Below, one piece after another: positions 1 to 18,900 of a stretch of 20,000 bases of DNA. A program made the translations under genes and the position numbers. The stretch comes from Ancylonema sp. (taxonomy: Eukaryota). The stretch's first letter is position 1; each line of letters opens with the position of its first letter. The notes under the pieces are model-generated. The model had not been told where the DNA came from and did not search any database. It saw only the letters and a program-made list of their open reading frames with translations. The DNA lies in assembly GCA_050230475.1 (NCBI GenBank), contig JBFLGF010000080.1:59635-79634 (forward strand). The letters are read 5' to 3'.

Positions 1-1
1 C

Positions 2-1642
2 CAGTTTGATGCAAAATAGTACACCGCTCATGCATTCTGTGAATACTACAAAGGGAAACACCACACCCGAGACCAATGTCAGAAACTTGCCAAGGCACAT
101 AACTTACTAACTCTCAGTACACCACCCACTGCAGATACTCAACCCAAACAAATCGGGTGGAAGACTCCTGAGACGCAGACAAGTTACCTGGCTATGCAAG
201 TAGACGACTTGGCACGCCAACGCGAATTCGAAAACATGTCGCACCAGACAACGGACTCTGAGGTAATTGACCATACCATTCCATGTCAATACCTAATGTC
301 CACCAGACGTTCGAAAAGAGAAAAAGAAACAAGCGGCTATTAAGAAACATACCCAATTTCATGTTCCTGTGGTCACTATCAGCTGTGATGCAGTTTGATA
401 CACCTGTGAATGAAACGCAAGTACCACCCTTGCCTGAAACTACACCAATTCATTATCAATCTGATCCTGAACCAAGTAGTTCTACCACTCCATATCCGGA
501 GCCACATCTAGAGACATTGCTTGAACAACGAACAAGAGAGGGGGAGGATTACGGTCGCAGACAGGGATACAGTACAAAGATGCCAGACTCATTTGTACCT
601 GATTTTCCCAACATTTTGGAAGCTGGCACTACAAACATGAACCAGTTCCATAATACTGCTGTCCCTCCACCCATGCCTCTACCACAAGCACAAGCTCTTC
701 ACGACATGCTTCATGACCATGTCAATATTTTGCGTGCACAACTGCAGATCGCAGAAAAAGCACGAGACAACGCGGCTGCACTTGTCAGTTCCATGCAAGA
801 ACCTGCAGCCCAATACACCACCAGTCAGGATTTCACCACTTCCTCAACACGAAACTCTCAGGACATCAAATACGGTATTGCACTCCTTCGCAACAACCGT
901 GGGGTGTTAAAAATCATGAATGAGAAACCAAACAAGGTGGTAGTCGACAGTGGTGCCATCAAAACCATGATTGGCAGAATCATGGCATCCAAACTTGGAA
1001 TCACACCAAACATGTTGAAACCTGGAACACCATACATCACCGCATCTGGTGTGCTCAATAAATCAGTCTCGGCAACCAAGGAAAAATTTTCCGATTACGA
1101 TTGGCAGCGGCACACCCAATCCAACCACCATTTATATGGAACTCCACATGTCTCCATCCAGAGAATTTGACGTCTTACTGGGCAATGAAATTCTTGGACC
1201 AATTGGTGGATACTCTGACCCTTGGCAACATCTATTTTTTTATAGGGCAGATTGGGAAAGAGGTGAGTTATGCCTAGCATCTTTACCACTCACAGTCCGA
1301 CATCAATCCAACAAATTAGAAGTGTATATGACAGATAGTGATTCACCATCTCTGACCCTCACACCTTGGGATCGTGCTGCAGCTCTCCAACAGAAGGAGA
1401 AGAAGGCAAAAGCAGACCAATCTACCAGAGACAGTGAATTTGCACGTGCTAGTCCACGCCGTTCCATTCAATTCGGCTCTCAACCAGAAGAGGCCGTCTT
1501 GCCTACCTTACCACCGGTCAAAGTGGCAGCACGTGATTATGAGGATAACTATCCACCTACACCTGGCTCCAAACGCATTGACCCTCCACAACGGACTATG
1601 GGGAAATACAAGAAACTGCGGATACACGTCACCAATCAGTAG
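2..1642 (+). pseudogene. Gag (CCHC knuckle remnant) - aspartic protease polyprotein remnant, frameshifted
   Basis: Frame +2, 38-79 reads CEYYKGKHHTRDQC (CX2CX4HX4C spacing, second Cys codon is TAC). Frame +1 has VVVDSGAIKTMIG (~937-975). After a frameshift near the A-run at ~1080, frame +2 has FDVLLGNEIL, the C-terminal retropepsin motif. Confidence 0.75.
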
Positions 1643-1756
1643 TACGCAAACGATTGTATGCTGAAATCGAGGACAAAATCAAGCGCAAGTGCATTCCCCA
1701 GGCACTTGAACAAGCAAAGTTTGTAGATTTCAACCAACCCATCTCATCTCGCAGCA

Positions 1757-3151
1757 GTGTGTGCCAAACATTCTTGCGCTGGTGGATTTGAAGAAACTCC
1801 TACTCCTATGGAATTAGATACATCAACCATTCCATCCTCAGACATTCCAACCAATCCTACATCTCGCCAACATCCTCTACTTGCTCCTGACACTCAGTTA
1901 CTTTCAACCATGCTTTTGGATACAGACCTTTCTCGAGCTACCAACGACACCTTCGAACCAGATGAGCTACACGAGCTCACTGAAGACGAATTGCGAGACC
2001 GATACCACGTTATGATCTCGCAACAGAATTTTTTTCGAACAGTCGTCCTCAAAGCAGCAAAAACAGAGGCACAGGCAACGATTACACACAGAATCACACA
2101 AGTCATCAACGAAAAAAAATCGGTGCTTCTCTGCAAGGATGTGCAAGCTGAACTTGACATCGCCGCAGCCCGGCAGGAAGAAAAGAGCAAATGGATCCAG
2201 CAGTATGATCTTCTAGTGGACAAACTGCATTCCAAATTGGAAGACAAGATGCAGGACGTGGTCAAACTTCACGCAACGCAAGAAGTTCGCCAAGAAGCTG
2301 CTCGTCTGGAACACAGGCTACAGATGGAAATCGGCAAAAATGTGCTGCGAGAAGAACAGTCGACAGCAATTCCCCTTTCTTCACCTACTAGCTCCGCACC
2401 CTCAACATCCATCAGTCCTGCACTTTCTCCTGTTGCAATCGCCCCTACCACCAGTGGGGGTGATACCATGGACACCTCGGAGGCCATAAAACCTCCTACA
2501 ACTGCTGCGCGCAAACGAGAGGCGTATTCCACTCAACCAATTTCCCCGAGTGAAGTACGTCCCGCCAACCGGCAGCGCATGCAGTGAGCATCACCAGTCG
2601 CGGCAACACATCGAGTAGAGACCTACCTGATGGATAGTCGGCGGTCTACACCTACAACTCCCAGCTCTTCATCCCAGCTACCCACGACGGAGGACCCAGG
2701 GCAATCCATCGTCAAAACGATGGAGAATGAAGCTGTGAAGAACAAGCCACTCGGTGCATACGCTCACCTGCGCGACCCCAGAGACAAAACCGATGTTGCT
2801 CAACGACTGGCACGCACAAACACCAGTGTGTCAGATTTTACCTTCCGCCAATCATTCGTTCGACCGGCTATGGCGCATCTCCTTAACATGGGCGCCATCC
2901 CGAAGGCCTTCTCCGGAGCACACCACAGCAAGTTGGCAGATTCCATTTACGCGCCAAGTATCCTGCATTACGGAGACGCGCACTACCAAAACATCAGGCG
3001 AAATGGTCAAATTTATATGCGGGAGGCACACCTCAAATTGCGGCATGACTACCAACCACTCCCATCATCCATCAAATGGTGTGGTCCTACGTTTCAAGGA
3101 GCATACGAACTTCCCCGAACCATCATTTCTACGCAACCAGCTTATGAGGCT
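1757..3151 (+). pseudogene. Unknown polyprotein segment (charged helical/coiled-coil-like region plus S/T/P-rich linker), in frame with the DNMT-like domain
   Basis: ORFs 1757-2587 and 2630-3409 are both frame +2, separated by a single TGA. E/K/Q/L-rich helical stretch at ~1960-2350. No recognised family. Confidence 0.45.
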
Positions 3152-4141
3152 CGAGGCCTGCACATTTACATCCCCTTCGGAAACCTGGAGATTGTGGAGA
3201 TCTGTCTTGAGGGAGGCTCCATCATGTCCCACGTCACGCCGCAGACGGACTGCATCCACACCAAAAATCGCTACCGCCAGAAGCTGCGACAACTGCAACT
3301 CCGCTTTCCAGACCAGCTGCCGAATTTTGCTATCGAACACTGCGATGTAATCCTGTCTACGAGCGTCACCGACACGACAACGGAGCAGATGGACGCACTC
3401 TTCCGTTAGAAAGGCCCCTTCGACGTGGTCGGTGGTAACAATCACACAGAGGTGGAGCGCACCTACACTCCTCTACGTGGCGGTCAAGACCGTCGTCTCG
3501 CTCCACTCCTCGCTGTCATCAAATGGATACACTACAACGCACGGCTCGCACAATTATACCCGGTGCTCATTTTTTACACCAACATCGGCACACCCGAGGA
3601 CCCTCCTTGGGTAGACGACCTATACCACGTGACGCGTGCATTCTTTGGCAACGCTGCGGAGCTCCAACCACTCCAGTTCTAAGGCCACGTCCATCGCCCA
3701 ACCAAGGTGTGGACCAACTGCATTACACCACGCGAGCTGGAACTTGCACAACCCAACAGGCAGATCCGGGAGCCGCTGCAGCACCTTCTGCAACCCGGGC
3801 ACACTGCACAAATCATGACTCTTCCCGACCTGGTGAACCACAAACTCAACCGCATGGGCAACCGCCTGGCTGTGTTTCCCACTGTGAGTCCTTATCTCTA
3901 GACATGCGACTATACGCTGCGATCGGATGGACGACCCGGCATCGGGATGCTGTTCGATGCACCATCTCAGCAGTATGTGCCACCTTCTCCATTCGAGATC
4001 GAGCAAGCCCTGGGACGACCTGTGGGCTACACAGCTCATCGACGTATCACCGACGCCAGGCGCGCCTCCCACCTGGGCCACATGATGGACGGACGACTCA
4101 TCATGTTCCTGGCGGAAATCCTTCAGGGCACCAAACCATAG
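3152..4141 (+). pseudogene. Retrotransposon-borne C5 cytosine DNA methyltransferase-like domain, catalytic residues substituted, three internal stops
   Basis: ORFs ending 3409, 3682, 3901 and 4141 are all frame +2. Read through, they give motifs in canonical order: I LHIYIPFGNL (3158-3187), LRQLQLRFPDQLP, IV GPFDVVGGNNH (3413-3445), VI FYTNI (3572-3586), VIII HRPTKVWTN (3692-3718), IX-X EIEQALGRPVGYT...RRASHLGHMMD (~3995-4090). These resemble DNMT3 GPFDLVIGGSPC and EMERVFGFPVHYT...RQRLLG. Confidence 0.75.
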
Positions 4142-4236
4142 GGATCACCCCTCACCTCGGAACAAAGGTATTTACCAACCTCAACTCTGGGGGGGAGGGA
4201 CACTAGATCCTCTGGTCAACAATTTTCAACCAAACC

Positions 4237-4631
4237 TGTGAGAGTCGCATTAGCGGCGGCTCTAGCTTATGGGAAAGCATTCATTCACAAACACAGATAC
4301 ACGCTGGAAGGGTTGGAAAGTGCAAGTATGAATATGAAGGAGTACAGGAGTTGATCAGGATGCATAATGAGCACTCCTGACGGGTTTAAATACTAGTCTG
4401 AAACTAGGGTCGGAAGTGATCTCGTTATAAAGGAAAACTGAAGAGCTAAGGGCAAACACTCGATACAAGGACAAACTGGAAGATAGGGCCTAACAAAGGC
4501 TTAACTAATGATGAGGTCTAATAAAAATAGGGCCTAATTACTGGGAGGCGACCGGGATAAATAGCTAAGAGCTAGCAAAGGTTAGGGCACTCTCTAGGGT
4601 AACCCTAGGGACAATAGAGAGAGTCCTAACA
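4237..4631 (-). repeat. 3' LTR of nested element (395 bp)
   Basis: tgtgagagtcgc...gagtcctaaca; aligns end to end with 7024-7411. Confidence 0.93.
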
Positions 4632-4647
4632 GGACCCCCCCCTCAAG
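4632..4647 (-). other. Polypurine tract of nested element
   Basis: Minus strand reads GAG + G-run + TCC directly before the TGTTAGG start of the 3' LTR. Confidence 0.8.
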
Positions 4648-5338
4648 GGCGCGGCGTGCCGCGTAAGCAGGAGAAGGGCAGAGGCCGGGGCGGGCTCCGG
4701 GCGGGAAAAATGAGCCCAAGACAGGCGGGGCTCCCGACGGGGGAGAAATGATGGCGGGGCTCAAAGGCATGGAAAAGAATGAGCCGGGGATCGTAAGGGA
4801 AATAACGGGCTCCCGCGAAAACGAAAGCGGGGGGCCGTCGGATGGACGGCTCGATGCAGAGGACGAAAAAACTGGAAATCTGACACTGACGATAACGACC
4901 GTCCGATCTGTATGTGTCAGAAACTGGCGTAGGATAGGATGGCGCCACGTTGACGAAAATGGATGATGGTGCGATTGCGAATGCGCTGCTGGCAGATATG
5001 AAAGCTGTGTAGGGTGGAGATGCTGGCTGAGGAATCCGAGTGGACGGCGGAGATGGAGATAGGTTGCCAAAAAACTGGGCGAGCTGCGAAACGCCGATGC
5101 GGAGGGACACTGCCGAATTTCGAGGTTCCAGAATGTTCCGAGTACGGCCAGGATGCAGGTCCGGGCATTGACAGTTGGAGATGAGGCCACGTCGAGCTGG
5201 ACGAGCCGAAATCTGGAGGCTAGGACCTCGATCCCCCGCAAGACCCCGCAAGCCTGGCGGCTGGAAGGCAGGCCAAAACCTGCATCCCGCACGTGCGACG
5301 GAGCTAACTAGTGCCGGCAAAGGGCTCCGATTTCGCGA

Positions 5339-5414
5339 AGCGCTAGTAGTAGAGCACGGGCATATCAGATTAGACGAGCGCTAGTAGTAGAGCACGGGCA
5401 TATCAGATTAGACG
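5339..5414. repeat. Perfect 38-bp tandem duplication
   Basis: agcgctagtagtagagcacgggcatatcagattagacg at 5339-5376 and 5377-5414. Confidence 0.95.
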
Positions 5415-6193
5415 GCCGGGTTAGGGAATGGGACGTGGGAGGGGAGGGGGGGGGGTAGTTAGGAAAAACTCCATCGTGGCGGGGAGTCAAACTGGGAATT
5501 TGGGCTGGAAATGGGAACGGGTGGGGAGCCTGAACCTGAAATGCTCTGGGGGGATGGAGTAGAACTGGGTAGGGGATTAGGACAATGCGCCTTGCACGGA
5601 GGTAGTCGCGTGCAGCGGGGAGATGGGGGGAACTGGCATGACAGCAGGTCATGGTTGCCAGGTAGGCGGCAGCGCGCAAAGCAGCGGGAACGCTAGCTGA
5701 TGGCGTGGCGCGATGGGGCGGGCGTGGCGGTCCGAGCTCGGACTGCAGAGCCGGGCGGCAGGCGTACGGACGCCGAGGTCCGTGGGGGTGGCCAGTGGTC
5801 GGATGTGGGGAGTACCATTGCGTGGATCGGGGGGAAACAGGGGGGACAAAAAAGGCAGTAGGACGGGAGGGGAGGGTGGGAATGGGAAAGACTGCAGGTC
5901 GGGAAGGAAAGCCTGCAGACTGTGGCTGGTCTGGATTGCGTTGGAGAACACAGCGGGAGCGGAGTGAGCGACAAGGCTCACTGGATCTGGAATAGCGACA
6001 GGAGTAGTCGTAATAGCAACAGATGGACCAGCTTCTGGGGTATTAGGAGCTGGCAGCAAGCAGGTAGCTACGTCAGCCGGAGCAGGAGTGGGTGTGTCAA
6101 TGGCAGCCTGCAACTTGGCTATAAGCTCCAAACACACTGCAGGTGCCGTGCCATAGCGAGAAGTAGGAGGGGGAGGAGTGTATTCTGCCCATT

Positions 6194-6904
6194 TTACAGT
6201 AGAAACTGCTGGTATGAAAGTACGGACAGGCGCCAGGGCAGGAGTAGGGGTGGGAGCAGATACAGCGACAAAGTTCGCTGGAGCAGAGAAATGGCTGCAG
6301 GAGTAGTTGCCGCACTGATAGTTGTGGGAGCAGAAGGCTTGGTAGCTTTGTTAGCGGCTAGGATAGGAACAGCAACGTGAAGAGCTGCAAAGGGGGGACT
6401 GACTGTCGCTGAAACAGATGGAGCTGGAGCTGGCGTAGGAGCTGGAGCTGGCGTAGGAGCTGGAGCCGGAGCTAGGATAGGCTGAGGAGCGAGAATAGCT
6501 GCAGGGGTAGGTACAGAGTCTGCGGAGCAGACAGGTAGGATAGTTGCGATAGGGTAGACGGAAATTGGGGCAGCTGGTAGCACTTGGATCTTGTTGAGCT
6601 GCCACTTCAGAGTAGTACACCACGAAAGTATTTCAATTGGAGTTGGTATAGCTGCAGCTTTGCTTGTGTAGGCACGGAGTCTGTCCGTCAGAACTTCGAT
6701 GAGAGCTTCGCGGAAAATGTTGAGGTCTTCCAACCATGGATCTGCCGCGTCTACGTAGGGGCGATAGTAGATTAGTTCCCTGTCTGTATCCTCCAGTTTT
6801 GAACTCAGTTGTTGTAACTTTTGAAGATCGTCGTCTTGGACAATCCACGGGTCTTGGATCGATAGATTGAATGGTTGCCGAAATGGCTGGATTGATGGAT
6901 TCAT
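6194..6904 (-). CDS. Hypothetical 236-aa protein of nested element (gag position; helical N-terminus, Ala/Pro-rich tail), possibly degenerate
   Basis: ATG about 110 nt downstream of the PBS on the element's sense strand. APAPAPT repeats come from an 18-bp tandem at ~6420-6470. Similar A/P/T-rich coding continues in ORF 5649-6137. No recognised domain. Confidence 0.45.
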   Translation of the reverse strand: MNPSIQPFRQPFNLSIQDPWIVQDDDLQKLQQLSSKLEDTDRELIYYRPYVDAADPWLEDLNIFREALIEVLTDRLRAYTSKAAAIPTPIEILSWCTTLKWQLNKIQVLPAAPISVYPIATILPVCSADSVPTPAAILAPQPILAPAPAPTPAPAPTPAPAPSVSATVSPPFAALHVAVPILAANKATKPSAPTTISAATTPAAISLLQRTLSLYLLPPLLLPWRLSVLSYQQFLL

Positions 6905-7009
6905 GGATGAATCGATGGACTCGTCCCGAAATGGGTGAAGGGTATCAAAACCCCAGTGTGATTCACAGTGAAGAATACTACAAAAAACTCAACTGGAAAA
7001 ACACACTCA

Positions 7010-7021
7010 GATCCTGATCAA
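7010..7021 (-). promoter_or_regulatory. Non-tRNA primer-binding site (TTGATCAGGATC), complementary to LTR-internal sequence 7136-7147
   Basis: Starts 2 nt after the 5' LTR CA end, does not begin with TGG, and is an exact 12-bp inverted repeat of 7136-7147. Confidence 0.8.
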
Positions 7022-7023
7022 AG

Positions 7024-7411
7024 TGTTAGAGTCGCATTATAGCGGCGGCTCTAGCTTATGGGAAAGCAATTCACAAACACACATACACGCTAGAAGGGTT
7101 GAAAAGTGAAGTATGAATATGAAGGAGTACATGAGTTGATCAGGATCCTGAATGAGCAATCCTGAGGGTTTAAATACTAGTAACTAGGGTCGGAAGTGAT
7201 CTCGTTATAAAGGAAAACTGAAGAGCTAAGGGCAAACACTCGATACAAGGACAAACTGGAAGATAGGGCCTAACAAGGGTGTAACTAAGGATGAGGTCTA
7301 ATAACCAAAATAGGGCCTAATTACTAGGCGACCGGGATAAATAGCTAAGAGCTAGCAAAGGTTAGGGCACTCTCTAGGGTAACCCTAGGGACAATAGAGA
7401 GAGTCCTAACA
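7024..7411 (-). repeat. 5' LTR of nested element (388 bp) with TATA-like TATTTAAA (7176-7169)
   Basis: tgttagagtcgc...gagtcctaaca; terminal inverted repeat TGTTAG/CTAACA. Confidence 0.93.
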
Positions 7412-8208
7412 AAACCTGTCAAACCACACGGCCGGAATAAACCAAATTCCAAAGTCAACAGTCAAAACCAAACTCCGGGCAAACCCAATACAACCAAAAG
7501 TCAACACACCAATTTAGGACCAAACATGGTATCGAAACCCGGTCCAAGACCACGACCCACAAATTCAACCAAACCAACCAAATTAAGGCCTAACAACTCA
7601 ACAGTCAAACTTGATTCTTCAGGTCCACGACATTCTGGTCTCCGGTCCTTACCTGGTCAACGAAGTAACACTCGGAATCAGCCTCTAACCATCCCAGACC
7701 TACCACACATCACTTGGATATCAAACCAACCAAGACGATAATCTCATTCCACATCTCATGCTGCCTCTTACCATACGAGGAAACAACACCAAAAACACCA
7801 TGAACATTTCTCTTTCATCAACCACACTTTTCAATACCAACCATCGGAACCTCCTTTCGTACCACCTATACAACTACATTTTTCTTTATCACCATATTCT
7901 ATCTCTCAGCATACCCGATAGTCTACCAAACTTGCTGGAAGTACCATCTTCCCTAGATTATGAACAAATCGTTTATACATATTTGGATGATGATACCATT
8001 CCTACCTATACTCAGGGATCTGCACCTAACCCTGATGCATTGTTCGCATTATTAAGTACACGATTACCTTCTACTGGTGATCTTGTCTTACCTTCACCTT
8101 CTAGTTATGCCACTAAACCACGGCATACTTTTGTCATGTTCTTGTACAACCTCGTCTGCTGCTGTTTCCCAGCTCCTTCACAAGCGTTCCACAGCTCGGG
8201 GGGGGGAG

Positions 8209-9158
8209 TGAGATCAGCCGGACCACCAAGTCCACCTGAGACCCTTCGATCACCTACGAACATCATCCCAACCCAGTCAACATCATCGCTACTCCACCGC
8301 GAGCATTACCACATGCATCATTATGAGAAACATCCGGGAACAAAGGCGACAAAGTATGAGGAATATCAATTTAGGCGGCCGACTCCAAACAACACTTCAG
8401 CTTTCATGACGCTAGAGATCGCTAAGGCGAAACCCCTCTAGATTGTTCACAAACCCCTCTAGATTGATACTCTGCCACAACGAGAATATTCGATATAACG
8501 ACTTTCTAGAATTAGTACTTTACTAGAAACATAGTGAAGTACGAAATTTGTACGACTCGAAAATAACGCGTGGCGTATTTTCCGAAGTCTAGAATCTAGC
8601 AGTTTCAACAAATAGCTGCGTGTCGATTTTGTCGATTTTGTTTAAATCACAAGTCTCTTTCGACTTGTCGATAATCCCGGCGATTAAATCCAGCAGAGAA
8701 ATATCTCGCGCCATTTTCATCGGAGCGCCGAGATTAATTGTAATGTTCTAGAAGCCAGCCTGTCGCTATATCTTCGACACTTTAACTATAGTTAACTCTG
8801 CCGGTTAGCACCGCGCAACAACTTTGTGATAAAAGAAAAAGTGTACTTTCAGATCTGCCAGCTTCCGCTGTCAGATTGTGATGTTAAGAAATCTCCCAAC
8901 AATCTTGTGTGTTATCTGAATCCTTTGCAATTATGTGAATATTGCATCCCTTCTTCGCTTACGCAACTTCGCAACGTGCTCGTCTTCCGAAGCCTGACGG
9001 CTGTTAACCTTGATAGTCTGCACCAGACTATCTTGTTTGCTTTATAGTATTTTCATAGACTTTTGTACTATAAACCATCTGTTAGCTCGCCCTCGGTGTT
9101 AAGTAGTGAATTTCACCAGACCGCTGAGACGTGTGATAGATATAATATTGATATCTCA
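8209..9158 (+). repeat. Probable 3' LTR of the outer gypsy-like element (~950 bp)
   Basis: Preceded by G9AG purine tract (8198-8208). Begins TGAGAT and ends ATCTCA. Its first ~190 bp recur at 9188, starting at the same TG. The right boundary rests only on the inverted terminus. Confidence 0.7.
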
Positions 9159-9187
9159 GTAGAGACTCAATTTGCAATACTACTTAG

Positions 9188-9370
9188 TGAGAGCAGCCGG
9201 ACCACCAAGTCCACCTGAGACCCTTCGATCACCTACAAACATCATCGATACCAACCCAGTCGACATCATCGCTACTCCACCGCGAGCATTACCACATGCA
9301 TCATTCTGAGAAACATCCGGGGACAAAGGTCACAAAGTATTAATTTAGGCGGCCGACTCCGAACAACACG
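9188..9370 (+). repeat. Truncated second copy of the same LTR (5' part only)
   Basis: tgagagcagccggaccaccaagtccacctgagaccc...ggccgactccgaacaacac aligns with 8209-~8396 with small indels. Confidence 0.88.
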
Positions 9371-10542
9371 TCACCCGTGCCTCCACGATTATCGATGCCA
9401 CCACCTCTGCCATAATTGAAACATTTTTGTCGAGTTGACCACTTAGCACAGTTCGCACCAACTTCTAGAGGCCTCACCATCTTTGACAGCTTTTTATTTT
9501 TTGTCATCCAGCTCACCCATTCCCATCTGCCCCCAGATCCAACTCATTCCAGGTGCTTCTTTCTGCCCGTAGTACAACTTTTCCAGGATACTGTACTTTG
9601 TCCTAGACATGCCAACGAACAACGCCATCACCTGATCTTTTGCACTAACAGGGAATTTTTGATGCACACACTCTCTGATGATCAACAGAAAAGTATTCTT
9701 AATGTCTCGGACTTGCATCTTCTCGTCGAATCTGAAAGAATTCAGCTTTTCTTTTGCGATCTGTTGAAGTTCTGGCGTCAGTTTATCATACTCCTCTGTA
9801 AGATAGTACCACATTGCCTTTGGATCTCGCTCAAATTGTTCAAGAGATGTTGCGATGTCATCACTGACAAGTTGCATGAGTAGCATAACCGCCTTCTTTG
9901 TTGTTTGCGGAAGCTTTTGACGTCTACTGTGTGCTGATCCATCTCTGCTTCATCTGTCACCCAGTATTCATCATCACAACAAGTTGTAACCTCATTTGGT
10001 ATTGTCTTTGTTCCTTTGCAGATCTCAAGGAACTCGGCATCATCAAGAGTAGCTAAGGCCTTAGATCTCCATGCTCGAAAGGTAACTTTGTCTCCGTCCA
10101 GAATGCAGTACCATGCTATGATACCACCGTGAGAACTTTTTCCTGCCATCGATGCAAGAATAAATTTCACTTCTCTTAATCTCTTTGAATCAAAAGGAAC
10201 ACGTCATTACACACATCGACACAACAAAAGTGCAAACTTGAAGTAGAAAGTGTTGATTACAGAATTCTGCCTGCAAGCTCGGACCCACTACAATCGAGTG
10301 TTGCCTGGTCAAAGATTTACTCATATCGAAAGTACTTGGTCAACTGCCAATCATATCTAAGCATTCTGCCACATCATCTTATTCTTATCGATACCTGTGC
10401 CAGATGGCCAAGCATGCCGACGAAATCATTGTAACAAGGACATCGGCCTGCATTTGCTGAATAATGACAAAACAAAAGCTAATTTCCCGGAAATATTAAA
10501 ATCGATATAACGACAAAAGTTCACAGCCCCTAAAAACTTACT
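9371..10542 (-). mobile_element. 3'-truncated Ty1/copia element: 5' LTR plus frameshifted gag, same family as 10848-14818
   Basis: Reverse complement aligns with 10848-~12020. Gag ORFs 9778-10170 and 9494-9886 closely match 11366-11587/11454-12377 (ERDPKAxWxYLTEEYDK, QKEAPGxSWIWGQMGM). Confidence 0.88.
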
Positions 10543-10847
10543 GATTCGGGTCCACTTGTGTTTGGGACCGTCTCAACCCGTCCATGGTTTATGGTCTGGA
10601 CATGTGAGTAGGTACACACGGTTTGCTACCATGCACATGACGTATTCCGTATATAACACGTCTTTCTTGGTAAGTGTCCGGAGTAGTGACCGATGGAGCA
10701 CGTGACCACTCTCAAGATCAGCGGACCATGTGACGAGTTGCACTCTTTGGTTATGAACGACGATTTGGTGGATCTCGTGCCGCTCGCGGATCCGGACATA
10801 CACAAACTTGATTATTAGTGCACACAATTCCGTACACTGTTGTTTAT

Positions 10848-11226
10848 TGTTAGTTTTTAGGGGCTGTGAACTTTTGTCGTTATATCGATTTTAGCAACAC
10901 CGGGAATTTAGCTTTAGTTTTGTCGTTATTCAGCAAATGCAGGCTGCAGGCAGCCTGCAGGCCTGCTGCAGGCCGATGACCTTGTATCAATGATTACTTG
11001 GCCATCAGGCACAAGTGTCGATAAGAACAAGTTGATGTGGCAGAATGCTTAGATATGATTGGCAGTTGACGAAGTAGTTTCGATAGCAGTAGATTCTTTG
11101 ACCAGGCAACAATCGACTGTACTATGTCTGAGCTTGTTTGCTGAATTCTGTAATCAGACTTTTCTACTTCAAACTTGCACTTTTGTTGTGTCAACGTTTG
11201 TAATGACGTGATTTGTCGATTCAAGA
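10848..11226 (+). repeat. Copia 5' LTR (3' boundary uncertain, between 11188 and ~11226)
   Basis: tgttagtttttaggggctg... matches 14475-14818 up to 11188; no clear PBS seen. Confidence 0.75.
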
Positions 11227-11262
11227 GGTTGTCTGAGAGAATTGTGCTTTATTCTTGCATTG

Positions 11263-14200
11263 ATGGCAGAAGAAAGCACTCACTATCAGAGCACGGTACT
11301 GCATTCTGGATGGAGATAAAGTTACCTTTCTCTTCAAGCATGGAGATCTAAGGCCTCAGCTACTGTTGATGATGCTGAGTGCCTTGAGATCTGCAAAGGA
11401 ACAGAGACTATTCCAACTGAGGTTACAGCCAGATATGATGATGAACACTGACCATGAAACAAATGAAGCAGAAATGGCGCAGTATACACTTGATGTCAGA
11501 AGCTTCCGCAAAAGATCAAAGAAGGCAGTCATACTACTCATGCAACTTGTCAGTGACGACATCGCTACATCACTTGAAACAGCTTGAACGAGATCCAAAG
11601 GCGATATGGGACTATCTGACAGAGGAGTATGACAAGGTGTCTCCAGAACTTCGACAGATTGCAAAAGAGCTGAACTCTTTCAAGATCGATGAAAAGATGC
11701 CAGTCAGAGAAATCAAGAATGCTTTTCTGTCGCTCATCAGAGAGTGTGTACATCAAAAAATTACAGTCAGCGCAGAAGATCAGGTGATGGCATTGTTTGC
11801 TGGCATGTCAAGAACAAAATACGGCATGTTGAAGAAGCTGTACTATGGGCAGAAAGAGGCACCTGGGATCAGCTGGATCTGGGGGCAGATGGGAATGGAT
11901 GAGCTGGACGACAAGAAAGAAAAGGATGTCAAAGATGCTGAGGCACTAGTTGTAGAGGCAAACTATGCTAAGTGGAGCCAAGGCACAAAGGTGGTGGTAT
12001 CGACAATCGTGGAGGCAGGGGTACATTCAGGGGGTATTCAGCAAATAATCGTGGAATCAGAGGTGGTCGTGGAGGCAGAGGTGGACAGTGGATCAAGTGG
12101 AGGACATTCCTGCTATACTTGTGGAGAGACAGGTCACAGCAGAGACTGCTCCAAGAAAAACGAAGAATGCAAATATTGTGGAGCCATTGGTCACGTGGAA
12201 TTAACATGTTTCGACGACAAGAAAAAAAACGAAGCTCCACGAATGCAGAGAAAGGGGGTACGCAGTGGGAGAAAAACAACTTTCGTTGGCGAAATCGAAT
12301 CGATGAGGGGAAGAGCTGTGGTCATGCAGAAGCTATCATCGCTGAAATCTAATCTATGGAGGAAATGTTGCAGATAATGATGATCAGAGAAAGATTTCCT
12401 TTTCGACGATGGTTCCAGTCACCATTCCTGTGGACAAAAAAATCTTTTCAAAATCCTCGAAGACATTCGACACGAGGTCATCATGCATCATCTGGTCGGA
12501 AGTGTGCGAGTGAAGGAGTGGGGAACAATTGAGCTGAATACTGAGGGAGAGTGTGGAGGAGTAACACTCAAGAAATGTTTGTACATTCCTGGGATGCGCA
12601 TTAATTTGTTCAGCGGTCAGAAAGCAGAGAGCAGGGTGGTCTTACACTTGCAGTGGAAAAGCTGGTGGCATCATTCCAGTTTACAACAAATCTGGACAAC
12701 AAGTCTGCACTCTCTGCAAGAAACATCGACAGGTCGAAAAACTATAATCTGCACACTGGTTCGGCTTCAGCAACTTAGTGAAGGGGAAGCTCTTGTAGCT
12801 GCTGTCGAAATCAACCTCCTGCACACAAGACTTGGGCATGCAAATGAGAGAGTGCTCAAATGGCACGACAACATATTGTACGAGGACTAAAAAGAGGCAT
12901 CTCAAGAGTTCTGCGAAACTGTGAAGGGTGCAAGCTGGGGAAGGCACACGACAAACCTCATCCTCGACGAGAAGTTGGTGAAGGAGAACAAGGCTGCCTG
13001 GGAAGTGTGTCGGTGGACTTGGCAGGGCGTTCAATCCAGCATCAATAGGGGGAGGAGTGTACAACATGGTGCTCGTCGATGAATACAACCGAAAATCCTG
13101 GGTGGAAATACTTCGCAGCAAAGATGATGCAGCTCCTCAACTGAAACAAGATCGGACTGGGAAAATGAGTGCGCTGGCTTGGCTTGGTGTGTTAGTTGGA
13201 TGGAATCCCGACACTCCTTGCTACCGAGTCTGGGATCCTGCAACGAACAAAATACACAACGTTGGCACTGGTCATGCAGACTTCGATGAATCTGTCAAGC
13301 AAAGCTGGTGGAGGAGACACAAAATTGGCAAGAAGGCACGAGTGCATGAGCCAGTCAGTTGCAGAAACAAAAATGTCATGGCCAGATCTGGATGCAGCTG
13401 ATCAAGGAGCAGGGGGTAGTGTTGGCCTCGGAGGGGGCATTTCTGGAGGTGGGCAACCTGCCTATGGCGATCCAAATTCTGTCGATGAAGAGAGATCCCT
13501 GATGTTGTGGGAAATCCATTGCCACAGCTTCCGAGATCCCCTCTTCCTCAGAGTGCAGATCTTCCAAAACTTGTCAGCAATTATAGTGGAGGCGATGAAG
13601 ACGAAAGATCATCTGGAAGCTGGTCCAGAATGGTATCCAGATGATGCTACTCCTCTTTAGCTGGGTGTAAAATTTTCTGCAAACTGTGAATCTGCTTCTG
13701 AATCCGCTGGAATAGAGGGTGTGGGCTACAAGTTTGCAACGGGCAGTTTGCTGCATCTCACTTCTGGAACAAGACCTGATCTGGCAGCTGCTGTTAACTC
13801 CTTGTGTCGATACAGTCAGCAGCCAGGGGACAAGCATTGGGCAAGCATTGGGAGGGGGTAAAGAGAGCTCAAGGGAACTGTCAATTTAGGGCTGATGTAT
13901 AAGAAAAGAGGTGATTTGCCAGTCATCGGTTACTCAGATGCTAGTCATGGTGACGACGCCGACACTAGGAAGGGGAGAACTGGCTATGTCTTTCTTAGTG
14001 GAGGAGCTGCTGTGAGCTGGAAAAGTGGTCTCTTGGAAACAGTCACACACTCAAGCTGTGAAAGTGAGTATTTGGCATTGAGTGCTGCTGGAAATGAGGC
14101 CATTTATTTGAGCCAGATGCAACAGGAGTTGGGTATTGATGGGGGGGGTGTGCTATTGCTGGGAGACAATGAGAGTTCTTTGAATCTTGCTGAGACTCCT

Positions 14201-14413
14201 GTTTTTCACAAGCGCTCCAAACACATCGAGATCAAGTATCATTCCATTCGAGAGAGGGTGTTCAAGAAAAAGATCAGTCTACAGTTTGTCAAGAATGAAG
14301 AGCAGGCTGCTGATATGTTGACAAAACCAGTAGTGTCTGTCAAGTTGAAGAAGAATTGTGATCTGGTGGGGAGCTGGTGTATTAGTGAGTTTTTTGTCGA
14401 CTTGTGTTTGTAA
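11263..14413 (+). pseudogene. Copia gag-pol pseudogene (multiple frameshifts; integrase core and most of RT deleted)
   Basis: Zinc knuckles CYTCGETGHSRDC and CKYCGAIGHVELTC (~12111-12210), protease FLFDDGSSHH (~12396-12425), LLHTRLGHA and CEGCKLGK, VDLAG/LVDEYNRKSWV, RT tail TRPDLAAAV (~13770), RNase H GYSDASHG...SSCESEY...KHIEIKYH...ADMLTK (13895-14413). Confidence 0.92.
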
Positions 14414-14474
14414 AATCGATATCGTTGTGGTTATCGTTTTTGGAGGGGGAATACAAAAGTACCCAGGAAGAGGG

Positions 14475-14818
14475 TATTAGTTTTTAGGGGCTGTGAACTT
14501 TTGTTGTTATATCGATTTTAGCAATACCGGGAATTTAGCTTTAGTTTTGTCGTTATTCAGCAAATGCAGGCTGCAGGCAGGCTGCAGGCCGGCTGCAGGC
14601 CGATGTCCTTGTTTCAGTGATTACTTGGCCATCTGGCACAAGTGTCGAGAAGAACTAGTTGATGTGGCAGAATGCTTAGATATGATTGGCGATTGACGAA
14701 GTAGTTTCGATACCAATAGATTCTTTGATCAGGCAACAATCGACTGTAGTACTAGGTCTGAGCTTGTATGCTGAATTCTGTAATCAGACTTTTCTACTTC
14801 AAACTTGCACTTTTGTTG
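14475..14818 (+). repeat. Copia 3' LTR, truncated on the right
   Basis: Begins TATTAG (TG>TA) after the PPT. Similarity to the 5' LTR stops abruptly after ttttgttg at 14818. Confidence 0.9.
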
Positions 14819-15786
14819 CACGCTGCGGTTAGCACCCTTCACAAGTTGGCGAGGCCAGGGTTCGTGAGGGGGCTGGAGGGTGGCCTGGTTGGGGAGCTGA
14901 AAGTCTGCCGTGGCTGCAAGTTGGGCAAGCCGCTGGCGAAATCCCACCCGCAGAAGGATCCAGCCTTCCGAGCAGGGAAGCCACTCGATCTCGTTCACGC
15001 TGACTTGGCAGGCCCGATCAAGCGTGCCACCTGGGGTGGGAAGCTCTACGTGTTTGTTCTCATCGACGATTACAACAGGAAATCATGGGTAATTCTGCTA
15101 AAAGAACAAATCAGATGTCGAATTGAGGGTGAAGGAGTGGACAACGCTGGTAGAGCGCAAATCCGGTTATCGGGTGGGGCGGTTCCGTAGTGACAACGGG
15201 GGGGAGTTCGTGAAGCAGACGTTGAAGGACTGGTTTCGTCTACGTGACATCACCCAAGAGTTCACCCCCCCCCGTACTCCACAGGCGAAACGGGGTCGCC
15301 GAACGACTCAATCGTACCCTCCAGGACCGAGTCCGTAGCATGATGACGGAGGGTGGGCTCGGGGGCGGAAGCTGGGGGGAGGTTTTTCTGGCGGCATCGT
15401 ACCTCAGGAACCGGGGACCGGTTACTGGATTGAATCTGACGCCGCAAGAGCTGTGGAGTGGGAAGAAGCCGACCTCGGCGCACCTGCGGGCCTACGGCTG
15501 CAAGGTGTATGCGCCCATCGAGAAGGGTGACAGGGCAGGGAAGCTCGGGAAGGTGTTCTGGGAAGGGGTGCTACTCGGTTACTCGGACAGCAGCCCTTCG
15601 TACCGGGTCTGGGATCCGGTGAAAGGGAAAGTCTACAATGTCGGCGGAGCAGACTTCGATGGGACGTGGAGGGGGGCTGGTGGAGGCAGCAGCTTCTTTT
15701 GCAGGGTGACTACGTGGCAGAGCCTGAAGAGATCCCCCAGGACTGGGCGGCAGATTCTGGCGCAGGCGCAGGCGACGGGGCACGCT
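14819..15786 (+). pseudogene. GC-rich integrase fragment of a second, related copia family (two frameshifts)
   Basis: HAAV...CRGCKLGK, LDLVHADLAGP, LIDDYNRKSWV, FRSDNGGEF, NGVAERLNRTL, HLRAYGC, YRVWDP across ORFs 14768-15190, 15123-15338 and 15244-15789. Confidence 0.9.
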
Positions 15787-15791
15787 TGACA

Positions 15792-15978: not shown

Positions 15979-18900
15979 CTAGTCAACACTCAAGTCAACT
16001 AGAGGGAGACCTAGATCCTCCAACGAGGAACGTATGCTATCGACATCTGTAACTATGAGAATGGTTTGTTTCTCTGGATGCAAATGACGTCTTGCAGCCC
16101 GTAAAACGTCCTCTGCACTCGTCTCTTCGATCCCTCTCTTGTATCGAAAGATGAAGTCTTGATCGATTCCAAACAGCTCATATGTCATGATACGACTCAA
16201 TTGGGCACCCCTGCAGAATCAACATTCTTAACTAGCTAGAGTCAAAGTCAGCGCTTAGATTTACCTTCAACTTTCCTCTCGCAATCCGCGTCAACATGTT
16301 TCAATGCTCGTAAAACATTCTGCGACTGCGAATGAGCTCATTGGACCTACGACATGAAACCACACAAAGCTTTGCCCAATATGTGCGCCAAAAGACCTGT
16401 ATCCTCTTTTTTCCCGTAAAGATCCGCTTGAATGACGATTGGGAAGATCGACTTACGAGTCAGCAAAGTTGAAGACGAAGGAGTTGAGGGATGAATCTTT
16501 GGCTTGCGACAACTCCTCTGCATGAGCCACGAGCCAAGTCCCCATGAGCCCATAGGCCATGAACCATGGCCCGACACCATCCTCTATCATCCTCCATCAT
16601 CCACCTACCTCAACTAGCAAACATTCCAACAAGTGAGCCCAAAACTCTTTCACTTTTCCACTTCTCATCTTTGAACCCAAACCAATCACCCCAACCTCCA
16701 CCCCTCGAAACCTACGCCCTAGTTTGCCCTCCCTCCCCCCCCTACCCTGCGTGGGCGGCTGAGTCCTCACGTCTCTCATCACCCTCTGCACCGCTGCCAC
16801 AAACTGTGGGATGGAGCTCACGCGGCTCTCCCCCCCTGCCACAAACGCCCCCTGAAGGAGGCGGGAGGCAGGATGTAAGACAAGGATGGGTGACCACCGT
16901 GGTGTGCCTTTTAGTAAGATAGACCCCCCCCCTCACCCTGTGCTCCATGGCTGGGGCCCACCCGCCGGAGACAGAGTAGGCCAGACCTTCTCGGGAACGA
17001 ACCTGGGGGGGGGGCACATCCCAAGTTTCCATCCTGAGAAGCGGCTACCCCCTAAAAATCGAAGGGTCACGGTTCATGGGTCTCACCTCATCGAACAGCC
17101 TCCCCCCGAATCCGTTCAGCTCCGAGTTGAGCACATCCAGAGCAACCAGATCAGGATCGTCCAGAGTGGTCCCAAGCTCCGCCATCCGCACATAGCTGCC
17201 AACCACCACCAACCACTGCCTACCACCAGTCACCACACTTCCTAACGAATAGTGAGATGGCAATGCAACGAAGATACAAACAGCTGCCCAGCCATCTGCT
17301 TCTAACGCATTCGTGATGCTCCCACCCACCCACCCCTGCGTGAGCCCTGGGCGGTTGATAAGGTAGACACCCGGTGGGCTCCAACCGCTGCCCTCCTCCT
17401 CAAGGGGTGGGGGGGGTGGTTGGGAAGGATGCCCTCCACTCCACCCTCCCATGGAAGAGAGAATGAGGTCCTGGGCGGTGGTGGAGTCGAAATCGCCCCA
17501 CAGCCCCAACCCCGCCTCATTGGGACGGTACACGGCGTCGTGGAAGGCGACGAGATCGGATTGTGTGATGGCCTTCACATCTGAAGCCTGGGGCACTCGG
17601 GCGTAGGGACTGGTGGGACCGTACAAAAGCTTGGGCACCTCTCTGCTCGCTATCCCTCCAGGCTGCAGGAGAGGAGGAGAGGACAGACAGACAGACAGAC
17701 AGGCAGATAGGGGAAGTGAGGTGGAAGGTGGGAGGTGCAGGGGTGGAGGGGTGGGGTGGGGTGGGGAGTGGTTACGTCATCATTGCGTCGCGCTAACACC
17801 CCTAGGAGTTGGCGGCGAACGAGGTCCAGCTTGTCTTGGGGCATGGCGGGGTGAAGGACCACTGGAGTACCAGGGGAGCAACACAGAGTGGAGTGGGAAT
17901 GATGGGAGAGGAGGGGGAGGATGGGGAGGAGGTCCGTCCGTACCGTCCGTGAATATTGGGAACACCTCCTCAAGGTCCTCCCGCAGGCAGCGGAATGCCA
18001 CACTCATCTCGGACACGCCCGCACCAGACTCGATCCGAGCAGCCATGGACTGACAACCCACAGACCCAACAACCAACAAAACGATGAACAACATCCACCA
18101 CGGCCATCAACGATACTCCCACGAACCGCTGCAAGGAATCAGTGGCGACGAGTTTTGATGAAAGGGGAAGGGAGAGGATCCATGATTGCTGCAATATGAT
18201 TCGATTTGATTTGATTTTGTTTGTGAAGGAAGGCTACCGTACCTCAAGGCGGGCGTTGAGTGCGTCTCCCGGGAGGGCGTCGGTTCCGCCCCCGCGCTGG
18301 ACCGCCCCCGTCACTGCAGCCAAACCGACCTACAGCAAACAGGGCGGATGATGCGGGGGAGGCAGGCAGTGTGTGTGTGGGTCGCAGTTGGTGTGTACTT
18401 TCGGATTCGACGAGTAATTTGACGTGACAGCTGGCATGGCTTCTCGTGATGAACACTGGAAGCGAACATGAAGTTGAATTAAGTTCCAGGTTCAGGTTCA
18501 GGTTCCGATTCTGTACCTTGCCTGCTGGGTCGGCCTTGCCACCTCCTTTTACAAGAATCTGGCCTCCAACCTTCAGAGACCAAACACACCACAAACTGAT
18601 GGTAAACGCTTGAGAGAGAGCGGTGCAGATTCCTCGACATGGATGTGCCATTTTTTAGCAAAAAGATGGAGGCAACCACCGGCCTCGCCACACACAGAGG
18701 ATACAGTTGCTGGAGGGGACAGGTATACGTCTCCTCACCAGGCCAAGCTCGTGATCTTCCAGGAGGAGCACCTTGAGGCCATTCGGCAGGACCACCTACA
18801 CCATACGACCAGAGACCATTTCGGCAGCATCAGAACGCGGACACAGAAGAATATCATGATAATAGTGTACTCCTACGCCGCAAGGGAATGACGAATCTAG

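Follow-up and report, generated by a model that had tools for sequence, protein, structure and literature searches.

A transposon-borne DNMT3-type domain without catalytic residues in a multi-copy LTR retroelement of Ancylonema sp.

Why retrotransposons carry DNA methyltransferases (DNMTs) is a standing question. Self-methylation has been proposed for retrotransposon DNMTs, and in the accessible part of that 2018 study the activity of the Klebsormidium enzyme could not be shown (PMC5890265). The 20,000-nucleotide stretch of Ancylonema sp. DNA analyzed here (hereafter the window) contains an LTR retroelement whose polyprotein ends in a methyltransferase-like domain with altered functional motifs. 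Is this domain the debris of one decayed copy, or has a protein been kept in a family of elements after catalysis was lost?

The domain lies on the forward strand at positions 3152–4141, where frame +2 gives 330 codons with internal stops at 3407, 3680 and 3899, a terminal stop and no frameshifts. An earlier sequence-only reading had joined four short frames across these stops into about 330 codons; the length and the motif strings it quoted were both found in the translation. It had also proposed a C5-methyltransferase-like domain, and profile, model and relatives agreed on a DNMT3-type fold. A phmmer search of 1.84 billion representative sequences (query 2720–4138) returned 91 matches (relatives are given by P numbers), 88 of them within the domain. 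These 88 were aligned, after removal of P0002 and P0005, which match upstream of the domain, and of P0078, an ankyrin false match. Against a profile of 77 active-type relatives, with alignment columns fixed on the window, the domain scored 152 bits, compared with 1.6 bits for the best of 500 shuffled sequences (228 gave a score); the C5-methyltransferase assignment is well beyond chance. DNMT3A ranked first with a profile of the window and 59 matches (E 2.6e-20). An alignment-based structural model reached a pLDDT of 90.5 from an input alignment dominated by active enzymes, compared with only 34.8 for a single-sequence model. Its best matches were DNMT3A (Foldseek E 1.3e-13) and DNMT3B (Z 22.9, rmsd 3.3, 273 residues aligned). 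Motifs I–X follow in unpermuted order on a C5-methyltransferase fold, judged by the alignment and by the model, which leans on active relatives. The domain is thus a DNMT3-type C5-methyltransferase fold of the Gypsy-DNMT3 retrotransposon group, complete from motif I to motif X and the last domain of its polyprotein.

Generic searches were largely blind to it. Pfam gave no match on the open reading frame pieces or the read-through of 3152–4141, and a PDB search with the single sequence returned chance DARPin matches only. PF00145 was detected in many of the relatives, often within gypsy Pol proteins (86 proteins scanned, including 81 of the 91 matches). Word-index searches with the domain found no near or longer homologue and one shorter fragment of 43 aa, and no related loci were found in metagenome or viral contigs, also with a degenerate motif-IV pattern. 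For the relative P0006, Rossmann-type methyltransferase structure matches in the Atlas fell below the naming bar. The CpG observed/expected ratio in this one copy was 0.93 in the domain and 0.59 in gag-protease.

The functional motifs were compared with the 77 active-type rows of the alignment, P0062, P0063, P0082 and P0083 being set aside as partial or misaligned. In the SAM pocket (motifs I–II, 3164–3247), the acidic residue of motif I is replaced by Ile7, FxGxG reads F-G-N-L-E, and the acidic residue of motif II is replaced by Thr32. Active-type rows have E/D in 45 of 47 cases at the first position and D/E in 55 of 55 at the second; the window and P0006 both have Ile and Thr, and P0006 also has the Asn of F-G-N-L-E. 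The altered FxGxG had been recognized before, and the loss in motif II adds to it. In motif IV (3437–3451), N-[NYW]-H-T-E replaces G-W-x-C-Q, and the catalytic Cys is replaced by Thr99 (3446–3448). This position is Cys in all 60 active-type rows with a residue there and Thr in all four altered rows extending over it (window, P0003, P0006, P0013). In motif VI (3575–3583), E-N-V has become Y-[NT]-[NH], with Tyr142 (3575–3577) in place of the Glu and His at the third position in siblings and P0013; Glu was present in 67 of 67 active-type rows and Tyr in three of three altered rows. The second Arg of motif VIII (3692–3718), found in 72 of 73 active-type rows, is Thr184 (3701–3703) in the window and Thr in P0013, in keeping with the RxR change noted earlier, and the first Arg and W-T-N are kept.

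Two of the earlier residue assignments had to be shifted by one position in the alignment with 88 relatives. The change described as PC>NH is one in which the catalytic Cys faces Thr99 (W-x-C-Q > [WY]-H-T-E), and that described as ENV>TNI is one in which the Glu faces Tyr142 (E-N-V > Y-[NT]-H). The Asn residues in these strings, moreover, are private to this copy and not common to the family: codons 97 and 144 encode Tyr and His in siblings, at 99.7% and 100% of the contig depth of run X1, respectively. Retained in the domain are H181-R182, R115, R203, R304, motifs IX–X and the recognition region. Of the marks of an active C5-methyltransferase, neither the motif IV Cys, the motif VI Glu, the second Arg of motif VIII nor the SAM pocket is present. 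By the C5-methyltransferase mechanism, a protein without the catalytic Cys, Glu and Arg and the acidic residues of the SAM pocket is unable to methylate cytosine.

Whether these changes belong to one broken copy was addressed with contigs from four runs (at most three samples, two studies) placed on 2600–4300. X1 by itself contributed 4,600 of them, and depth summed over contigs was not taken as copy number. In the rows listed, siblings have sense codons at three of the four premature stops (2585, 3407 and 3899). At 3407, 94% of X1 depth has sense; the stop at 2585 (codon 2585–2587) is private, with sense in 98% of X1 depth, and that at 3899 is Trp in P0001 and P0004. P0002 and P0005 are siblings of the 3' part of the preceding linker, 75–83% identical. 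This copy is broken, and the element family is multi-copy. A Cys-bearing minority may exist among the siblings.

The catalytic replacements, by comparison, are old. As the sequence-only reading had supposed, the loss is common to a family of elements and predates the stops of this copy, the replacements recurring in P0003, P0006 and P0013. Identity with the window is 43% for P0006 and 29% for P0013, and 35% between the two; both read N-W-H-T-E, and the changes are therefore not decay of this copy alone. In trees of the two half-domains, which were quick trees of fragment rows with long branches and no bootstrap, altered rows clustered in both (SH-aLRT 91). P0062 fell among them in the N-half tree, where they adjoin the intact-site rows P0042, P0008, P0033 and P0051. 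P0062, a fragment, keeps the motif I Glu, and its motif IV region is apparently degraded or frameshifted; from its sequence it is a possible intermediate.

Identity of the window to P0006, P0007 and P0013 was 47% (84/179) at columns conserved in active relatives and 26% (45/174) elsewhere (p 4e-5), with P0007, like P0009, classed as altered by tree position alone. For the two rows verified at motif IV, the values were 42% (49/117) and 29% (35/120; p 0.043), neither row being significant singly. P0007 had 56% identity at conserved and 19% at other columns, and its best-kept part was the C-terminal recognition and IX–X region. The frame ends 14 residues past motif X in the window, P0001 and P0007. 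Conservation among altered forms thus tracks the core of the fold, which argues for selection after catalytic loss, and these comparisons make it likely that a pseudoenzyme has been maintained by selection. The altered clade consists of short fragments on contigs of 600–1300 bases, so neither an intact member nor the architecture of its distant members was seen.

The element around the domain begins beyond the 5' end of the window. Its first visible feature is the end of gag (20–343, +), with a degenerate zinc knuckle (C-x2-Y-x4-H-x4-C) recognized in the sequence and no Pfam match; a frameshift near 313 is absent from the sole contig that bridges it. A retropepsin follows at 916–1375 (+), its DSG triad near 946; in this copy a frameshift splits it. 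It matched PF13975 (E 3.7e-5, under the curated cutoff) and, by tblastn, the PR-DNMT relatives P0028, P0056, P0057, P0066 and P0075 (E 3e-7 to 2e-4); among 107 proteins, its best matches were the proteases of PR-DNMT relatives. A linker of about 600 codons (1376–3151, +), of low complexity and helical, then leads to the domain. It has no Pfam match and no reverse transcriptase (RT), RNase H (RH) or integrase (IN), and sibling contigs were found in every one of its bins.

Profiles of RT, RNase H and integrase, built from 9–10 relatives each, had no match in 1–9400; the integrase profile did recover a copia integrase at 14867. X1 and X3 contigs covered all 30 bins of 1–9400, and sibling contigs ran collinear through the element. 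No single contig spans it, and the loose ends listed included no large insertion point between protease and domain. The previously proposed layout of gag, protease and pseudo-DNMT without RT, RNase H or integrase is thus the one that the sibling contigs listed appear to follow. The claim that the DNMT stands in place of these enzymes, by contrast, did not hold, as relatives place the domain upstream of RT. Full-length P0095 and P0107 are arranged as zinc knuckle-(PR)-DNMT-RT-RH-IN. Given relatives of the form gag-PR-DNMT-RT-RH-IN, the layout here reflects loss of what lay downstream of the DNMT, and not a substitution of the domain for RT. The intact-site relatives P0008, P0010, P0053 and P0075 also stop right past the DNMT, so that this layout is not peculiar to the dead form. 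As judged from its coding content, the element is probably non-autonomous, and an RT-bearing subfamily may exist.

Downstream of the domain, the element is interrupted by an unrelated nested LTR element (4237–7411, −) with LTRs at 4237–4631 and 7024–7411 and a 5-bp target duplication (4232–4236, 7412–7416). Sibling contigs leave the window at 4233/4239 and rejoin it after 7417, skipping the insertion. The nested element has LTRs of 390 bp and a 2.4-kb interior with a proline/alanine-rich frame of 264 codons (6194–6988) and no Pol. Covered by many contigs, it is a second multi-copy non-autonomous family. The 3' region proper (7417–8208, +) has a depth like that of the coding region and ends in a polypurine run (8198–8208). 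A frame of 250 codons (7689–8441, +) starts within it and has no Pfam match. One sibling contig over 7636–7905 differs at 48 letters with no gaps, and there is a hint in the sequence that this frame is under coding constraint. A stretch at 7507–7522 within this 3' region, which starts with TGGTATC and adjoins no LTR, resembles an initiator-tRNA primer site.

The 3' region runs into a terminal repeat block (8207–9373, +) composed of B (8207–8399), A (8402–9185) and B' (9186–9373), the last cut at 9373 by copia sequence. B and B' are 88% identical, and the period of B-A-B' is 979 bp. At 8404, 82 contigs with mixed flanks end, joints enter via TG, and depth rises about tenfold; an abundant LTR starts at 8402. 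These contig ends and the depth step displace the LTR previously placed at 8209–9158. The LTR likely belongs to the pseudo-DNMT3 element. The polypurine run lies ahead of B, whereas contig ends place the start at A (8402). Two readings suit such a block: a split repeat of the DIRS-like kind, or an LTR whose 3' end is repeated once more internally. Beyond it lie decayed copia elements (9373–15789), one at about 10850–14820 with LTRs, an inverted partial duplicate at 9373–10541 and a fragment of another at 14820–15789. They are followed by an intron-split host gene resembling M16 peptidases (exons 15979–17776, −; PF05193, E 3.6e-10), which marks the DNA as eukaryotic.

Gypsy-borne DNMT3 domains are already known; the new part here is a transposon-borne form without the catalytic residues. 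The closest described system is KnitGypsy-Dnmt3 of Klebsormidium nitens, with key residues conserved and Pol domains present in the accessible part of de Mendoza et al. 2018 (PMC5890265). Both elements have a DNMT3-type domain within a gypsy-type LTR polyprotein, and the DIRS-like repeats described there (A-coding-B-A-B) resemble the B-A-B' block at 8207–9373. Set against that description, the present element stands apart in having other residues at Cys, Glu, Arg and the SAM pocket, and in its lack of RT, RNase H and integrase (PMC5890265). The Ancylonema element has the retroelement-borne DNMT3 domain that defines the Gypsy-DNMT3 group and lacks the RT, RNase H and integrase of its Pol. Among 20 clusters of matches looked up, no K. 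nitens sequence was identified, and Closterium proteins were the only named relatives, which makes a streptophyte alga the likely host. The domain is about 18–24% identical to those of polyproteins arranged as gag-PR-DNMT3-RT-RH-IN or PR-DNMT3-stop (P0011/P0095, P0107, P0053/P0098, P0075; Closterium CAI7911866.1 and CAI5990913.1). These have a similar protease upstream, and several stop no more than 20 residues past motif X. They differ from the window in their intact Cys, Glu and H-R-x-R and in a short protease–DNMT spacer, as against about 600 codons here. Gypsy-borne DNMT3s, the Closterium proteins among them, are widespread in databases. They come in three or more layouts (RT-RH-DNMT-IN-PHD, PR-DNMT-RT-RH-IN and PR-DNMT-stop; P0011–P0107), and most have W-E-C or W-P-C for S-P-C.

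Catalytically mutated DNMT3-family proteins that are selectively kept are described, in the accessible part of PMC2965745, in DNMT3L and Arabidopsis DRM3; these are host genes aiding silencing, whereas the pseudo-DNMT3 is transposon-borne. DNMT3L aligns over only 160–171 residues, whereas the domain here spans the whole fold. EpiLTRs are LTR elements that carry DNMTs, the DNMT in Cymbomonas occupying the 3' end of pol; unlike the DNMT3 here, their DNMT is DNMT4-related and accompanied by DAM and a chromodomain, and the main text of the preprint never uses the word "inactive" (bioRxiv 10.64898/2026.05.21.726589). TR-GAG elements, as far as described in the accessible text, are non-autonomous LTR elements below 4 kb that keep a single Gag frame, whereas the present element exceeds 6 kb and adds a protease and the pseudo-DNMT3 (PMC4350172). 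A literature search, with most subscription papers beyond its reach, turned up no earlier description of a transposon-borne DNMT3 that is catalytically dead.

We tentatively favor, at less than even probability, the explanation that a DNMT3-fold domain without catalytic Cys, Glu and Arg has been kept as a module that binds DNA without catalysis, in a multi-copy LTR family that is probably non-autonomous. An ancestor with gag-PR-DNMT3-RT-RH-IN would have lost everything past the DNMT, and one lineage would then have lost SAM binding and catalysis while retaining the fold. Gag and protease would come from the element itself, RT and integrase from a helper; the protease would free the pseudo-DNMT3 from the Gag-PR polyprotein, and the domain would be carried into the particle. 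It might then bind DNA without methylating it, on new cDNA in the particle or on integrated copies, and by occupying sites it would compete with active de novo methyltransferases. Such a DNA-occupying role is plausible from the domain's residues, though we would not put it at an even chance. In C5-methyltransferases, the motif VI Glu and the motif VIII Arg contact the flipped base. The accessible part of PMC4437897 describes a Cys mutant of M.EcoRII as a tight DNA binder; since the Glu and Arg contacts are lost here too, what holds for mutants of the Cys alone may not hold for this domain. In a bolder version, which we consider possible but unlikely, the host's type of de novo silencing enzyme was captured and disarmed and its site rebuilt (His-Thr-Glu plus His), giving a transposon-borne pseudo-DNMT3 of a new anti-silencing class that would block or erase silencing and let RT-less elements multiply.

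Among the alternatives, the domain could be a passenger, a folded tail on the polyprotein that helps stability, processing or RNA structure and does nothing else. Of the 77 columns with 70% or higher conservation in active relatives, 41 are lost in the window; this loss, the long branches and the weak constraint on the N-half speak for the passenger, an unlikely but serious contender. A single stop could drop a C-terminal passenger, yet subfamilies with about 40% identity share the frame end, and the altered rows also share the replacement residues. Rather unlikely, too, is a partner of the DNMT3L/DRM3 kind, which would pair with an active DNMT3 of the helper or host and tune or poison it. The helices matching the DNMT3A stretches RLFFEFYRLL and ISRFL, which form the DNMT3A–3L interface, stay hydrophobic and carry an aromatic residue in the window, P0003 and P0013. 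The two host proteins named above are precedents for catalytically mutated DNMT3-family helpers (PMC2965745, accessible part), but the best-conserved part, the C-terminal recognition and IX–X region, lies outside the coverage of DNMT3L.

That the old active site was rebuilt for new chemistry or metal binding around His98-Thr99-Glu100 and His144 appears doubtful. N96, H98, T99, E100 and R103 are common to all four altered rows that cover them and nearly absent from active rows (N96, H98 and T99 occur in none), and His144 is found in P0003, P0013 and sibling contigs. Only three independent subfamilies are represented, however, so that shared ancestry explains the common residues, and Atlas feature matches for P0006 were at chance level (best 0.84). 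Plain decay or deletion of an ordinary active Gypsy-DNMT3 element is very improbable: it would account for the four stops, the several upstream frameshifts, the nested insertion and the near-neutral drift of this copy from its siblings in the domain (8 of 22 major differences silent, in the best 40 of 468 rows), but not for catalytic replacements shared by siblings and by relatives 29–43% identical, and P0003, P0006 and P0013 contradict it.

As Pfam is blind to this domain, more cases are probably present without annotation. A lineage that kept the fold and dropped catalysis implies that methyl transfer is not the sole selected role of retrotransposon DNMTs, and active and dead Gypsy-DNMT3 elements form a natural pair in which to test what that role may be.
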